From Methanobacteriota archaeon (GTDB taxonomy: Archaea; Methanobacteriota; Methanobacteria; Methanobacteriales; Methanobacteriaceae): a stretch of DNA of 64,000 bases. Made by a program: the position numbers and the translations under genes. Position 1 is the first letter of the stretch, and every line of letters starts with the position of its first letter. Of this stretch, positions 49,072 to 56,097 are shown in pieces. Under the pieces are notes generated by a model. It was given only the letters and a program-made list of their open reading frames with translations, ran no database searches and was not told the origin of the DNA. Location: contig CAWBCJ010000029.1 in the NCBI GenBank assembly GCA_963787255.1, positions 448,001 through 512,000 on the forward strand, written 5' to 3'.

Positions 49072-49371
49072 TTAGTAATCATAAGTTATTTTTAATAGTA
49101 TGGCAAGCGCTATAAGCTCGATAATTCCACCTATGTAAACGGGCCTACCTATTAAAGCCTCGCTGTCAACGATTAAAAAGCCGATGGTGAAAATACTTTT
49201 AATTAAAAGGAGTAAAGCAAATATTATAAGTCCTACTGTAAATCCAATCTTTATTTGCCTGTAACTTTTAGTATAAAGGTACAGTAGTCCTGTTAAAAGT
49301 CCAATATTTGCAATTTCTATAATTACTGCTGCAACTTTGATTCCAGTGTATCCGAATATTTCTACTGTCAT
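49072..49371 (-). CDS. Small 3-TM membrane protein, paralog 1
   Basis: ANIGLL..LLYLY.KSYRQIK..FTVGL..F..; 85/99 aa identical to 51572..51871. Confidence 0.85.
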   Translation of the reverse strand: MTVEIFGYTGIKVAAVIIEIANIGLLTGLLYLYTKSYRQIKIGFTVGLIIFALLLLIKSIFTIGFLIVDSEALIGRPVYIGGIIELIALAILLKITYDY

Positions 49372-49458: not shown

Positions 49459-49515
49459 TTTGAAGATTTCCCGCCTAAAAAAAGATAAATGGAGGATTCC
49501 CGCCCAATCTTCAAA
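49459..49515. other. Structured element 3' of ABC ATPase, sharing a 23-nt motif with 52827-52849
   Basis: Stem TTTGAAGATT/AATCTTCAAA enclosing two TTCCCGCC copies and TAAATGGAGG. Confidence 0.6.
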
Positions 49516-49523
49516 GTATTAAG

Positions 49524-50219
49524 TCAAGATGTGATATTATTCGTTTTTTCTTCTTTAATTTTCCCATCAAGCACGGTTATGATTTTTTCAGCCATGTTAG
49601 CCACGTATGGTTCGTGTGTTACCATTACAAGGGTTACATTCTCTTTTTTGTGGAGGTCTTTAAGAAGATTTAATATTAAATCTCCTGTTTTTGAATCTAA
49701 GGCCCCCGTTGGTTCGTCGGCTAAAATAATAGAGGGATGATTCACTAAAGCTCTCGCAATGGCTACTCGTTGTCTCTGTCCACCAGAAAGCTTGGTTGGT
49801 CTCTGGTTAATTTTATCTTCAAGCCCCACTGATTTTAAAAGTTCCAAAGCTCTTTCTTCCATTTTTTTACCTGAAATAGAAGTTTCAAGCATTGGAATCT
49901 CCACATTTTCAAGCACGCTGAGATTGGGAATCAAATTATGAAGCTGGAAAACAAATCCAATTTCACCGGACCTGAACCCACTCAAATCCTTTTTATACAT
50001 CAGATCAATGCCTGCAACGTTTATAGAACCTTCATCTCCTTTATCCAGTGCTCCAATCATGTTCAGGAGGGTTGATTTCCCAGAACCGGAAGGTCCAATT
50101 ATGGAAACAAATTCCCCTTTTTTAATTTCAAGATCGATGCCGTTTAATGCATTAATTTTGCCATTGTCGTAACTTTTTTTGAGATCCTTTATTTCAATGA
50201 TATTTTCCTTATTATTCAT
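49524..50219 (-). CDS. ABC transporter ATP-binding protein (LolD/MacB type)
   Basis: GPSGSGKST, IGFVFQ, LSGGQRQRVAIARAL, ADEPTGALD, VTH. Confidence 0.95.
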   Translation of the reverse strand: MNNKENIIEIKDLKKSYDNGKINALNGIDLEIKKGEFVSIIGPSGSGKSTLLNMIGALDKGDEGSINVAGIDLMYKKDLSGFRSGEIGFVFQLHNLIPNLSVLENVEIPMLETSISGKKMEERALELLKSVGLEDKINQRPTKLSGGQRQRVAIARALVNHPSIILADEPTGALDSKTGDLILNLLKDLHKKENVTLVMVTHEPYVANMAEKIITVLDGKIKEEKTNNITS

Positions 50220-51420: not shown

Positions 51421-51488
51421 TATTTAAGTAATTATTTCAAAATTCATTGCAAATTTGTTACAAATTACATGCAAATTGTATCCAATTA
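51421..51488 (-). promoter_or_regulatory. TATA box with four 11-bp-phased upstream boxes
   Basis: + strand TATTTAAGTAATTATT at 51421 (TTAAATA on minus); CAA(A)TT at 51450, 51461, 51472, 51483. Confidence 0.75.
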
Positions 51489-51571: not shown

Positions 51572-51871
51572 TCAGTAATCCCATGTTATCTTTAAAAGTA
51601 TAGTGAGCGCTATAAATTCGATAATTCCACCTATGTAGATGGGCCGGCCTATTAATAAATCACTGTCCACTATTAAAAAAGCGATGGTGGAAATACTTTT
51701 GATTAAAAGCATTAGAGCAAATAAAATTAATCCTACTGTAAATCCAATTTTTATCTGTCTATAACTTTTTGTATAAAGATAGAGTAGTCCAGTTAATAGT
51801 CCTATATTTGCAATTTCTATGATAATAGCTGCAATTTTAATTCCTGTGTATCCAAATAGTTCTAAGGTCAT
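51572..51871 (-). CDS. Small 3-TM membrane protein, paralog 2
   Basis: 12 nt downstream of wHTH gene; near-identical to 49072..49371. Confidence 0.85.
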   Translation of the reverse strand: MTLELFGYTGIKIAAIIIEIANIGLLTGLLYLYTKSYRQIKIGFTVGLILFALMLLIKSISTIAFLIVDSDLLIGRPIYIGGIIEFIALTILLKITWDY

Positions 51872-51883
51872 TTTAATCCCTAT

Positions 51884-52168
51884 TTAATTACTTTTCTTAA
51901 CCTGTTTCCATATAATTTCAAAATCATCGTAGTTTTCTTCCATGCTCTCTGAGAGAAAATACATTTTACCATATTTTTCTCCAGCGGATTTAACCACATC
52001 ACTATCTTCTAGAATCTTAATATGGTGTCTAATAGTCCTGTAATTCACATTTAACTCTTCTGCAAGCTGATGTGCATTGTAAGGCCGTTCATTTAATTTT
52101 TTAATGATTCTGGCACGATTCACGCCACCCCTTGTACCAAGGATCAGCCACCACAGCACTTTTTTCAT
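51884..52168 (-). CDS. Winged helix-turn-helix (ArsR-like) regulator, LWWL..GTRGG.NR subfamily, paralog 1
   Basis: [29 protein letters not shown]; KYGKMYFLS wing; no Cys metal sites. Confidence 0.9.
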   Translation of the reverse strand: MKKVLWWLILGTRGGVNRARIIKKLNERPYNAHQLAEELNVNYRTIRHHIKILEDSDVVKSAGEKYGKMYFLSESMEENYDDFEIIWKQVKKSN

Positions 52169-52298: not shown

Positions 52299-52679
52299 TT
52301 AATTTTTCATTGATTCAGTTTTTATAAGTGAACCTAAAACTCCTCCAACTACTCCCATGACTATTTCAAGCCCGATATAAAGAACTACGGTACTTATTAT
52401 GCTGCCCATATATTCGCCATATCCCTGGAAGTACATCATAACTACTAATAAGGCCGAAACTATTAATCCACCTATCAATCCTAACAATACTCCATTAATA
52501 GCCCCTTTTTTTATATTACTGCCCACCATGAATCCTAACGCAATCCCTGCGAGTATAAATGATGGTAAAAGTATGCTCTGACCTGAAATAATGTCTGAAA
52601 CAATGTAAAGAGTTACTGCGATGATAATTCCAATTATCAATGGTCTCCATTTAATTAATTCTTTAATCATGCTTTCCAC
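52299..52679 (-). CDS. DUF5518-like 4-TM Gly-rich membrane protein
   Basis: KWRPLIIG, GFMVG..KKGAING...G.IGG, GVVGGVLG pattern. Confidence 0.75.
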   Translation of the reverse strand: MESMIKELIKWRPLIIGIIIAVTLYIVSDIISGQSILLPSFILAGIALGFMVGSNIKKGAINGVLLGLIGGLIVSALLVVMMYFQGYGEYMGSIISTVVLYIGLEIVMGVVGGVLGSLIKTESMKN

Positions 52680-52718
52680 GTCCTGATTTTAAATTTTTTC
52701 ATAATATAGTATAACCTC

Positions 52719-53054
52719 AAAAAAAAGAATAGGGGATTTATAGGAGGCATAAAAATCCCCAATATCATTTCAGAGGTGAAATGAATGTTATTGTATATGT
52801 ATATCTCCAAATAAGCTCAAAAAGACTAAATGGAGGTATCCCACCCAATTTGATAATTTCTCCTATCAAAAAAAGGGGGAAAGAGGATTTTTACCTCAGA
52901 TAGGAGAGAATTAAGCGACATATTAATGAATCTTGTAGAGGCCCACCCACTCTACAATTGAAGATATTTTTTTTAGTTTTTTAAGATATCACTCCAAATA
53001 ACCTCTTGATTTATTTTTAAATAGATTTTAATTTCTAACTACCCTGAATTCCAT
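52719..53054 (-). ncRNA. Candidate ~340-nt multi-hairpin regulatory RNA or structured leader (strand inferred from promoter)
   Basis: Five stem-loops (52732-52760, 52765-52784, 52801-52839, 52855-52912, 52933-52957); last hairpin followed by U8 on minus strand; conserved promoter at 53075. Confidence 0.6.
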
Positions 53055-53074
53055 GTATTAAAGTTAATAAACTG

Positions 53075-53140
53075 TATTTAAGTAATTATTCCAGAGTTTT
53101 TCCCAAATCAATACCAATTATACCCAAATCTATACCAAGT
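53075..53140 (-). promoter_or_regulatory. TATA box with four phased upstream boxes
   Basis: Same 16-mer TATTTAAGTAATTATT as at 51421; CAA boxes at 53104, 53115, 53125, 53136, the first at the identical 29-bp offset. Confidence 0.75.
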
Positions 53141-53378
53141 CCTAACACGGCCATAATTTATTTATAAAAACGAGAATTCTTCCTTAATACAACTATTTTG
53201 ATTGTAATTAAAGATTTTTCATAAACACATCTAAGATGATTATAAGCAATATTCATTATATTTGATCCTAAAAACCACATTTATAACTTTTATAAACTTA
53301 AAAATATATTTTAACCAATTTTAAATATTAAATTACTAAATAAAATAATTATAGATTATTTTAGCTCGAAATAATCCA

Positions 53379-53548: not shown

Positions 53549-55323
53549 ATGTCAAAAATAAGCACAAAATAAAGGAAAAATCATGGATTATAATCCTGGT
53601 TGCCATATTCATATTCTCATTTATATTGGATATGTACGTTTTAACACGTTACAATCTTTCTTATGGCCGAGACGGGCCATTTTACGACCTTCAGGTTCTA
53701 AGTATAATTCAAACAGGTTTCCCAGCCAGTAATGATCCGCCGCTTGCTTATTATTTACTTTCTCCATTTGTAATGCTTAGTGGAAACTCTTTCCTTGGTA
53801 TAAAAATTGGAATGGCGTTAATAGGATCTTTAATGGCATTTCCTGCTTATTTCCTTACTGAAATGTTTAGCAAGAAAATAGATATTGAATCTAAAGTTCC
53901 CGCGTTATTAAGTGCATTTCTCATAACAGTAAATCCATTTTATTTCAGTATGATTGGTGATTTCATGCAGAATCTTGTAGGGGCCTTCTTTTTATTACTC
54001 TTACTGTATTTTGCAGTTAAATGGTTTGAAAATACAAAGGAATGGAAAAAATATGGAATTTTAACGGTAATATTGCTTATCTGCAGCATATTCACCCACA
54101 TTTACACAGGAATACTGGCAGTAGTGTTATTTATATCATTACTGCTCTTTAACATAATTTTTAGAACCTTTAAAACAGGAAAAATGCCTGCAAGAGATTT
54201 AAAAATAGTGGGAGTAGTTGGGGTTCTAATTATTGGAGGATTGGCTGCTTTATTTGCATTATATCCAGTAATGTTTTCTAAATTCACCACAGTACTGTCC
54301 TTTGTAAATAGTTCATCTTCTGAAACTTCAAATTTAATGGGAGGGCCTAATACAAGTCCACTAATATTTTTAACAGTACCTTTCATATTAGGAATTTTAG
54401 CTACACTAAATGTACTTTATAAAGGATTAAAAGAGAAAATAGACGCTCAAAATGAAAAAATAAACAAAAAAATATTATTAGCACTGGTGTATTTGGTGAT
54501 GACTGTTGTTGTGATCGCTATTTCCACATTACCTTCAATTGATTCCCAGTATCAAGGTAGATTTATAATGCTTGCATTTGTCCCTATAGCCTTGATGGTG
54601 CCTTTAGGGCTTAAATTAATTGAAAAATGGATTTCAAATAGATATCCATCAAAAAAAGGATTGAAATTGGGAATAATCGGCATAATTGCTGTTTTATTTA
54701 TGATATCCAGTTTCTATACTGCGTCTACGACATTTTCAAGTATGGGGCCAAGTATCACCACAGATCAGTACAACGAACTTGTAAAAATTAAAGCTGATTA
54801 TTTAAATGGTAAAATAGATCCAAATGGCATAATAGTTGTAAATGACTACCATACGGGATATTGGGTCCAATATGTAACTGGAATGCATGTTGAAACAGGA
54901 AAGTACCAGTGAAATTCAGGCAAAATATCCTGATCAGACCATATATGCACTTACTTTGACAGAAAATAAACAATCAGGATTAAAAGGTAGTTTTGAATAT
55001 TCATGGAATCCATTGCTTCCCTTATTCATTTCCATTTGGAGGATTCAATATGGGATACTTCGTCAAATGGAAATCAGAATGCCTAGAATAATCCTCCTAA
55101 CCAAATTTCAAGAAATAACATGACTGCTCCGCCATCTGGTGGTTTAGGGAATAATACTCGGTTTAATAGATCAGGTTCTCACCCTCCGAATTTTGCAAAT
55201 ATGACTCAAAATAGAGGTGCTGGATCCTTACAAATGTCTGATCAAGGCTCAAATCAGTTAATAACGAATAGTGGAACACTAATTTTTAGTGCTGACAATT
55301 TAAAGATATATAAAATATCTTAA
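53549..55323 (+). CDS. GT-C fold (ArnT/PMT-like) polytopic membrane glycosyltransferase-like protein, frameshifted (near 53568, 54900, 55020)
   Basis: N-term MSKISTK/IKEKSWIIILV; GRDGPFY and DPPL in first loop; ~12 TM; QYQGRF; DYHTGYW; Gly/Asn/Pro-rich tail ending LKIYKIS. Confidence 0.65.
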
Positions 55324-55345: not shown

Positions 55346-55778
55346 CTATTCCCAGGTAATATAGAGAAGTATGGACAATGCAATCAATTGGATTACATTA
55401 ATGGAAGATAAGGGAAATTCTTGCCGTCCTATTTCAAAGCTATGGCTTCCAGGGCCTAAAATCATGCTTAATGCTAGAAATAGTGTGGATACAGCATTTT
55501 GAAGTAGGAGAAGTGAAACAAAGACTAAAAGACCCATTGTGAATTTGGATTTTAATTGTCTGTAACTTTTCAAATAAACGTAAAGTAATGCAATTAATAG
55601 AGCAAATATTTGCAATTCCAATTATAATGGCTAAAATTGTACTTATGCCTATTATATCCCATCCATTTAGGGCTGGATTCATGCCATGTGGTGGAATTGT
55701 GCTGCCATTAGGGCTTCCTGTACCTCCTGGCCCATTATTAATGATATTTAGTCCTTTTTCCATAAATTTTTGTATCAT
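55346..55778 (-). CDS. Small membrane protein paralog 3 with Gly/Pro-rich N-terminal extension (frameshift near 55608)
   Basis: NNGPGGTGSPNGSTIPPHG..IGIANI joins LLIALLYVYLKSYRQLKSKFTMGL..ITWE, homologous to the other two copies. Confidence 0.8.
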
Positions 55779-55815
55779 TTTTTCCCTCTAATTCTTGAAC
55801 TAATTTAATGGTTAT

Positions 55816-56097
55816 TTACTTTTTCCCAATTTGTTTCCAAATTTCTAGAAATGTATCGTAATTTTCTTCCATGGCCGGCGATAAGAAGTACATTTTACCA
55901 TATTTCTCTCCGCCTGATTTAACTACGTTATTTTGTTCTAAAACTTTAATATGGTGTCTTATAGTCTTATAATCTAAATTCAGCTCTTCTGAAAGTTGAT
56001 GTGCATTATATGGTCTATCATTTAGCATTTTGATTATTTTTGCACGGTTTAATCCGCCCTTCATACCGGCAATTAACCACCACAACAACTTTTTCAT
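55816..56097 (-). CDS. Winged helix-turn-helix (ArsR-like) regulator, paralog 2
   Basis: About 68/93 aa identical to 51884..52168. Confidence 0.9.

Follow-up and report, generated by a model that had tools for sequence, protein, structure and literature searches.

A structured RNA element conserved in Methanobacteriaceae beside ArsR-type regulator genes, probably read from the plus strand

The window analysed here is a stretch of 64,000 nucleotides (nt) from an archaeon of the Methanobacteriaceae (contig CAWBCJ010000029.1, positions 448,001 to 512,000, of GenBank assembly GCA_963787255.1), and our subject is a compact element at its positions 52828-52985 that appears to be a conserved RNA gene. 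The genes that accompany this element and its relatives, as named by Pfam, encode an ArsR-type HTH_5 regulator (E 9.6e-11), a DUF5518 membrane protein, a MacB/FtsX ABC permease and a large PMT_2-like membrane protein, together with small membrane proteins that matched no Pfam family. An earlier inspection of the bare letters, hereafter the original prediction, had flagged positions 52719-53054 as a GC-enriched stretch without a long open reading frame (ORF) and had proposed that it specifies an RNA of about 340 nt.

The sequence features listed in that prediction, namely stem-loops, short motifs, T-runs and a U8 run, all lie where it had placed them (Table 1). The compositional claim holds as well: the G+C fraction is 0.29-0.37 over 52700-52950 against 0.11-0.25 in the adjoining spacers, and no ORF in the flagged region is longer than 47 amino acids. 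A run of eight A residues (52719-52726) borders hairpin 1 and reads, on the minus strand, as U8 on the 3' side of that hairpin. Folding energy by itself is unimpressive and does not go beyond chance on either strand, with z-scores of -1.74 (plus) and -0.86 (minus) for a 361-nt stretch and of -1.47 (plus) and -1.08 (minus) for the core of the window copy. That the element is more than a chance assemblage of hairpins is concluded because of comparative evidence, and this conclusion is valid for 52828-52985 only, not for the entire flagged span.

Table 1. Features at and around the conserved element (positions in the window; sequences on the plus strand unless stated)
Feature	Position	Strand	Remarks
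A8 run with hairpins 1 and 2	52719..52784	+ or -	specific to the window clade; no covariation
Hairpin 1, GGGGAUUU/AAAUCCCC	52732-52760		loop AGGAGG; minus reading GCCUCCUA
Hairpin 2, UCAUUUCA-GAGG-UGAAAUGA	52765-52784		minus reading UCACCUC
Conserved structured RNA core	52828..52985	+	covariance-model match, 135.9 bits with R2
P1, 5' hairpin UGGAGGUAUCCCACCCA	52831..52847	+	CCCACCC at 52840-52846; pairing tentative
GGAGGUAUC	52832-52840		minus reading GAUACCUCC
CCCACCCA, two copies	52840-52847 and 52942-52949		minus reading UGGGUGGG
P2 stem, UUUCUCCUAUC / GAUAGGAGAGA	52857-52867 / 52899-52909	+	compensatory changes; domain 52857..52909
A7-GGGGG within P2	G-run 52875-52879	+
P2a, small hairpin GAGG/CCUC	52883-52886 / 52894-52897	+	inside P2
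Junction AUUAAGCGACAU	52910..52921	+	invariant in type A copies
P3 hairpin, GUAGAG-GCCCACCCA-CUCUAC	52935..52955	+	second C-rich motif in the loop
AAUUGAAGAUA	after P3, before the U-runs	+
U8 and U6 runs	52967..52982 (T-runs 52967-52974 and 52977-52982)	+	likely transcription stop of a plus-strand RNA
Conserved box GAUAUCAC	52985..52992		directly after the U-runs; minus reading GTGATATC, Shine-Dalgarno-like
Permease gene relic (MacB/FtsX-type ABC), first ~22 codons	52986..53054	-	in-frame stops
Promoter-like box ATAATTACTTAAATA	53075..53089	-	identical box at 51421-51435(-)

In blastn searches of 23 genomes of the genus, about 160 nt (52831-52992) recur at 71-80% identity, and the adjoining 110 nt (52991-53100) recur separately, at other places. 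A first alignment of the recurring segment displayed the invariant blocks UGGAGGU, CCCRCCCA, AUUAAGCGACAU and GCCCRCC set between compensating stems, with the 5' hairpin of the core taking the form UGGAGGU..CCCACCCA. Two covariance models were used, R1 comprising 9 sequences and a hand-given structure, and R2 comprising 29 copies. Within the genus, 17 of the 23 genomes contain matches to R1, with 1-3 copies per genome; among 151 sampled genomes of the family, R1 recovered 12, which belong to 2 of the 27 genera. R2 matched 4 of 26 genomes of a second genus and, in a 151-genome sample of the class, 2 of 28 genera. The window has a single strong R2 match; the remaining ones in the window and its own genome score 16-26 bits and are taken as noise, with the exception of 49487-49561, which is described further below. 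A wide contig pattern scan returned, among the matches listed, only chance matches in unrelated bacteria.

The copies fall into two subtypes, type A, to which the window copy belongs, and type B, in which a U-run and CCCRCCC are followed by an extra hairpin and UUAARUGA replaces UUAAGCGA. When all 29 copies are aligned, 90.2% of 592 cells form standard pairs, compared with 76.7% in shuffles; 19 of the 21 pairs have changed on both sides, and none of 500 shuffles reaches any of the five measures that we applied. Sliding the partner columns by 1-3 positions lowers pairing to 41-55%. P3 has double changes in five of its six pairs, 97% of its cells paired and about ten different versions of the helix. 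What tells against taking these counts at face value is that the alignment had been fitted to the model and is thus biased towards structure, and the P2 strands were therefore also matched independently of the model. This yielded 242 Watson-Crick, 13 G-U, 4 A-C and 6 other cells, distributed over at least eight versions of the helix. P2 is probably longer than modelled, since in several clades the bases 5' of it can pair, through differing sequences, with the first bases of the junction (the start of AUUAAG). P1 has to be regarded as tentative, because the model aligned another hairpin at its position in type B copies; among type A copies its bases are invariant. A possible closing helix between GGAGGU(GA) at the 5' end and AUCAC(C/U) at the 3' end has a predicted energy of -6 to -13 kcal/mol in type A copies, albeit in differing registers, and none is clear in type B.

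Two structural proposals were set aside. RNAalifold, run on a MAFFT alignment, mis-registered P2 and P3 and was superseded by the hand-given structure and the model-based realignment, and a pseudoknot between the G-run of P2 and the C-rich loop was discarded, as each of these varies independently of the other. The box beyond the U-runs, RAUAUCAC(C/U), fits a loose pattern in 24 of the 29 copies; on the minus strand it reads GGTGATAT, which resembles a Shine-Dalgarno sequence, but no start codon follows it.

On these comparative grounds the segment 52828-52985 is, as far as its sequence and that of its relatives can tell, an evolutionarily conserved structured RNA gene, and to this extent the original prediction of a conserved structured non-coding RNA is borne out. 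A reading in which there is no RNA gene at all, the segment being instead a gene fragment in decay, a gene for a small protein or a regulatory region acting at the DNA level, could appeal to the gene relic in the adjoining 52986-53054, to a G+C content at the coding level and to a 53-amino-acid minus-strand ORF that is open in one clade (that of genome G013). This is very improbable in view of the double compensatory changes in nearly all pairs; in addition, every frame is broken in some of the copies, stop-free runs being as short as 11-14 codons, and plasmid and phage collections contain no match to the element. Two specific versions of this idea were examined and rejected. The minus strand had seemed by eye, from the likeness of a 12-mer, to preserve the 5' end of an ArsR gene; the local alignment z-scores of 24 pairs range from -1.4 to +1.3, with controls behaving alike, and nhmmer found no match there. 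The small-ORF readings were dropped since no frame is open across the family.

The extent of the conserved unit differs considerably from what had been proposed. Family-wide conservation covers only about 155 nt in place of a unit of some 340 nt. Hairpins 1 and 2, whose loops had been interpreted as anti-Shine-Dalgarno sequences, are confined to the window clade and show no covariation: hairpin 1 is carried by the window and genomes G012, G021 and G002, with a partial version in G011, and hairpin 2 by the window, G012 and G021. A third motif interpreted in the same manner, the complement of GGAGGU (ACCUCC), is absent from most type B copies. The two clade-specific hairpins may represent a 5' extension of a plus-strand RNA, or alternatively a minus-strand stop immediately ahead of the DUF5518 promoter.

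The right end of the flagged span has a different history. The stretch that follows the core aligns to the starts of the intact FtsX genes of genome G017 and of the window itself, and its translation carries stops. The box to its right, ATAATTACTTAAATA, has two exact copies in the window, and tolerating as many as 2 mismatches raises the number to 6, where 1.68 are expected. This box is the one that precedes intact FtsX genes. The permease relic and the retained box together indicate that the ABC genes were deleted in this lineage, leaving their promoter to face the RNA gene. Hence, the original prediction was right that a conserved promoter at 53075 points into the element, but it belonged to the lost permease and faces the element solely through the deletion. 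A minus-strand transcript running from this promoter to hairpin 1 and its U8 may exist in this genome as an antisense by-product. The unit that the prediction had envisaged, a minus-strand anti-Shine-Dalgarno repressor of multiple targets extending from the 53075 promoter to U8, is not the one that evolution has conserved.

The central remaining issue is the strand, which had rightly been called uncertain: the evidence leans to the plus strand without being decisive. We consider it probable, judging from the G-U pairs, the U-runs and the folding z-scores, that the functional RNA is read from the plus strand, opposite to the choice made originally. The observations pointing in this direction are: 1) In the model-independent matching of P2, the 13 G-U cells contrast with the 4 A-C cells that would be G-U on the other strand. 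2) All six type B copies scored in P2 share a central U-G, equivalent to a C-A mismatch on the minus strand. 3) Two copies have U-G cells in P3 that are broken on the minus strand. 4) The P1 predicted for the G013 clade places the A/G position of the 5' motif opposite U, and the minus-strand equivalent is again C-A. 5) Within 40 nt past P3, 19 of 27 copies have a T-run of 5 or more, as opposed to 10 of 27 for the minus-strand equivalent. 6) The mean folding z-score is -1.67 on the plus and -1.33 on the minus strand, the former being the better in 20 of the 29 copies.

Several observations pull the other way, and these are best weighed together with the opposing reading, namely that the functional molecule is a minus-strand RNA with a G-rich loop (UGGGUGGG) that bears ACCUCC, as the original prediction held. 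Such an RNA would form the 3' end of a minus-strand operon that starts further up (that of the ABC or of the ArsR-membrane genes or, in this window, the transcript of the relic promoter at 53075), or would have a promoter of its own, and in the window clade it would end at hairpin 1 and U8 (52760-52719), where a hairpin is followed by U7-U8 on that strand. In keeping with this, a minus-strand transcription unit invariably precedes the element on that strand (the ABC genes at 9 loci, the ArsR/membrane genes at 9, and the relic promoter in the window). The raw model-fitted count is nearly neutral, with 534 cells paired on the plus and 530 on the minus strand (G-U 28, A-C 24); the copy in genome G009 has three A-C mismatches in P2 that become G-U on the minus strand; and the G013 clade folds equally well or slightly better on the minus strand. 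Furthermore, at one group of loci (class II, described below) a run of T5-T8 immediately precedes the core, and at class II and type B loci a minus-strand ATAAAATA box is found 10-20 nt before a conserved GTGATAT. No clear TATA box, by consensus, stands at a fixed distance upstream on the plus strand; the same search found none on the minus strand either, and a scan for bacterial-type promoters returned them at the level of shuffled sequence. The corresponding scan for bacterial-type terminators called none, including the U-runs beyond P3. Set against the mismatches that the minus strand incurs in P2, P3 and the 5' motif, the lower frequency of T-runs at its 3' side and the restricted distribution of ACCUCC and of hairpins 1 and 2, these points leave a functional minus-strand RNA unlikely.

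The organization of the loci was counted for the 29 copies with the RNA taken as lying on the plus strand. An ArsR-type gene is present at 24 loci, divergent from the RNA in 15 and convergent with it in 9. A divergent operon of membrane protein, ArsR and DUF5518 genes stands upstream of the RNA at 19 of 29 loci; a convergent ABC ATPase-FtsX operon lies 100-200 nt downstream at 9 of 29; and a PMT_2-like gene is found downstream, at a distance of 430-1285 nt, in 7 of 29. In another 9 of 29, which we term class II, the RNA follows the PMT_2-like gene and faces a convergent membrane-ArsR operon 310-580 nt away. Both loci of the second genus (2/29) have the element adjoining DUF5518, with other ORFs convergent downstream in L031, the one of the two whose ORFs were listed, and contig ends interrupt 2/29 loci. 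Genes on the plus strand itself are lacking from the first 400 nt past the element in all 29 copies; read on the minus strand, the 9 copies of class II are followed by none. There is thus no consistent candidate for a cis-regulated gene on either strand, and for this reason we read the element as a stand-alone gene.

This bears directly on the proposal that the element acts in cis, either as a sensor and terminator whose read-through would produce antisense transcripts against a convergent operon, or as a minus-strand leader or attenuator of the DUF5518-ArsR genes. Riboswitch-controlled antisense RNAs have examples in Listeria, Enterococcus and Clostridium. Like riboswitch and attenuator leaders, the family has a structured domain and, behind it, a hairpin with a U-run, often with convergent genes beyond: 18 of the 29 copies face a convergent operon 100-580 nt off. 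A role in cis also gains from the closeness of the opposite-strand DUF5518 start (67-150 nt in the window clade and the second genus), from the hairpin and U-run between the element and DUF5518 in the window clade, and from the conserved box beyond the U-runs. Unlike such leaders, however, the family has no consistent downstream gene in cis: 7 loci have no convergent gene, and a leader is hard to reconcile both with the 9 class II copies and with the type B copies, which lie 230-1100 nt from ArsR. Moreover, no alternative pairing of P3 of the anti-terminator kind was seen by eye, and Rfam returned no riboswitch match. We accordingly regard a cis-acting role as quite unlikely.

The explanation that we favour, though tentatively and at somewhat short of even odds, is a stand-alone, trans-acting small regulatory RNA (sRNA) on the plus strand that is coupled to the ArsR-type regulator and works via two CCCRCC motifs. 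The segment 52828-52985 would encode an RNA of about 155 nt or, counting in the clade-specific hairpins that extend from about 52732, of at most about 250 nt. Its transcription would run away from the DUF5518-ArsR-membrane operon and halt at the U-runs past P3. By analogy with divergent regulator-sRNA pairs, the adjoining ArsR-type regulator may control the RNA. In enterobacteria, sRNA genes divergent from the gene of their transcription factor are exemplified by OxyS-oxyR, GcvB-gcvA and SgrS-sgrR. The present family resembles these in being a small structured RNA gene with a likely terminator and no conserved ORF, which at part of its loci (the 19 of 29 with a divergent operon) stands back to back with a regulator. 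It differs from them in coming from an archaeon, in the nature of its partners (an ArsR-type regulator and a small membrane protein), in having 9 convergent copies, and in that the coupling is deduced here from gene arrangement.

In 26 of the 29 copies a CCCRCC-type motif is found on the 5' side of P2, and the P3 loop has one in 28; the 29th has a P3-like segment immediately past the model match, which we read as P3 displaced by an insertion. Under the favoured trans-acting explanation, these C-rich motifs would pair in trans with G-rich sites of mRNAs (GGUGGG-like and Shine-Dalgarno-like) and so lower translation, a role in which the A/G variation of both motifs would preserve pairing to U. 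RsaE and RoxS of Firmicutes are sRNAs that mask ribosome-binding sites by means of C-rich motifs. In Methanosarcina mazei, sRNA41 masks ribosome-binding sites and sRNA162 belongs to the same group, according to PMC5867862. The family shares with these RNAs a pair of conserved C-rich motifs, of which one sits in a hairpin loop, and with those of M. mazei its archaeal, intergenic setting; it has no sequence or Rfam kinship with any of them, CCCRCC is not an exact complement of GGAGGUGA, and no target was found for it.

The pairing step is the weak one of this explanation, because the target scans gave nothing convincing. Part of the 5' C-rich motif of type A copies is predicted to be taken up in pairs with GGAGGU, which tells against the explanation, as do the next two results. 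Gene starts show no excess of GGGTGGG, with 55 sites genome-wide and few of them near starts. In an RNAduplex scan of 2779 crude ORF starts, where the long query permitted meaningless loops, the neighbouring genes rank 1056-2473. Boxes like GGGTGG or GGTGGG (GGYGGG) gave, as a plain count, 52 matches among 7826 candidate starts, and the complements of the junction, of the G-run loop and of UGGAUA matched no gene start. The 3' end of 16S RNA was not found in the window's own genome. Several of the GGGTGGG matches fall in G+C-rich sequence on contig C26, which contrasts with the remainder of the genome (33% G+C) and fits the stated 4.6% contamination of the assembly.

That no base-pairing target turned up might instead speak for a protein-binding RNA, whether it serves as a CsrB-like sponge or scaffold or is bound, through the C-rich motifs and the U-rich tail, by an Sm-like protein or another RNA-binding protein. 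The occurrence of one conserved motif twice per RNA and the conserved sequence of its U-rich tail are also consistent with this, and the several GGAGG and GAGG motifs on the plus strand of the window are reminiscent of CsrB and RsmZ. However, unlike the latter, the motifs reside mostly in stems or in clade-specific hairpins: the AGGAGG loop occurs only in hairpin 1, and the family-wide GGAGGU is a strand of a stem, so that GGA motifs are not in loops across the family. The CsrA family (PF02599) has no match in the window's own genome, which is 95% complete, while a control search was positive in 3 of 14 reference genomes. A CsrB-like role, which the original prediction had offered for the plus strand, is therefore improbable, because no CsrA gene was found; as no other candidate protein was identified, we hold a protein-binding RNA of any kind to be distinctly unlikely.

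A broader formulation, which we consider possible though doubtful, sees the family as a new, Methanobacteriaceae-specific class of archaeal regulatory RNA with twin CCCRCC motifs, duplicated within a cell-envelope locus that it would couple to a wider regulon. The locus in question consists of an ArsR-type sensor, a MacB-type ABC exporter and a PMT_2-type glycosyltransferase. The coupling could take either of two routes: pairing with G-rich ribosome-binding sites, or signal-dependent read-through of the terminator into the convergent ABC and regulator operons, by which the element would act as a sensor RNA controlling antisense transcription.

Rfam and covariation had been suggested among the means to check the prediction. 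The covariation is found in P2 and P3 of the core and is lacking in hairpins 1 and 2, and no family of Rfam 15 applies: the whole window gave 0 matches at gathering thresholds, and a permissive search of 52650-53150 had a best score of 23.6 bits against a threshold of 49 (E 2.1). Full-text literature searches, and term searches within PMC5737381, the bioRxiv preprint 10.64898/2026.10.21.760802 and the review PMC5867862, turned up no such RNA for the Methanobacterium group, although supplements of the RNA-discovery papers may list archaeal motifs. We file the element as a putative new RNA family of the small structured regulatory type, absent from Rfam 15. Few archaeal small RNAs combine strong comparative support with a defined genomic partner. 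With its covarying helices, its clear pair of motifs and its constant neighbours (an ArsR-type regulator, a small membrane protein, a MacB-type ABC transporter and a PMT_2-type membrane enzyme), the present family offers an entry point to a possible RNA control of envelope-related genes in pseudomurein-walled methanogens. It is also suited to inclusion in RNA family libraries, where it would improve annotation.

Some further observations concern the surroundings of the element. Between 49072 and 56097 the window contains what appear to be repeated units (small membrane protein, ArsR, in some cases DUF5518, RNA, ABC ATPase, FtsX) that have undergone reciprocal decay, with ArsR/membrane gene pairs at 51572-52168 and 55346-56097 and a lone membrane protein gene at 49072-49371. 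The weak match at 49487-49561 (plus strand, 25 bits) is a partial copy of the 5' hairpin of the RNA (AAAUGGAGGAUUCCCGCCCAAU) followed by UAUUAAG; it is situated between that lone gene (49072-49371, minus strand), a paralogue of the gene for the 99-amino-acid membrane protein, and the ABC ATPase gene, with no adjoining ArsR. Judged by eye, it looks like a decayed second copy. In the window the intact RNA is retained beside a retained ArsR gene, and the decayed partial copy is found where ArsR is missing, a pattern that speaks for the favoured explanation.

The PMT_2-like gene at 53563-55320 (plus strand) is broken, in that an intact homologue of 604 amino acids aligns to it as four pieces in frames 2, 3, 1 and 2 and no in-frame ATG, GTG or TTG is available ahead of the TTG at 53626; either the gene has become a pseudogene, or homopolymer errors in the assembly account for the breaks. 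Lastly, the hairpin modules upstream of class II copies, at one point considered as part of the family, proved to be a dispersed repeat that does not belong to it. This repeat of about 55 nt has the form TTTTTGGAGGTTGAAG-hairpin-CGAAACCYCAAAAA and is found in genomes G017, G013, G022 and G001 (e.g. L053:10289-10360). It has 29-41 matches per genome in these four larger genomes of the genus and 0 in the window's own genome, and at class II loci two or three copies of it stand just upstream of the RNA.

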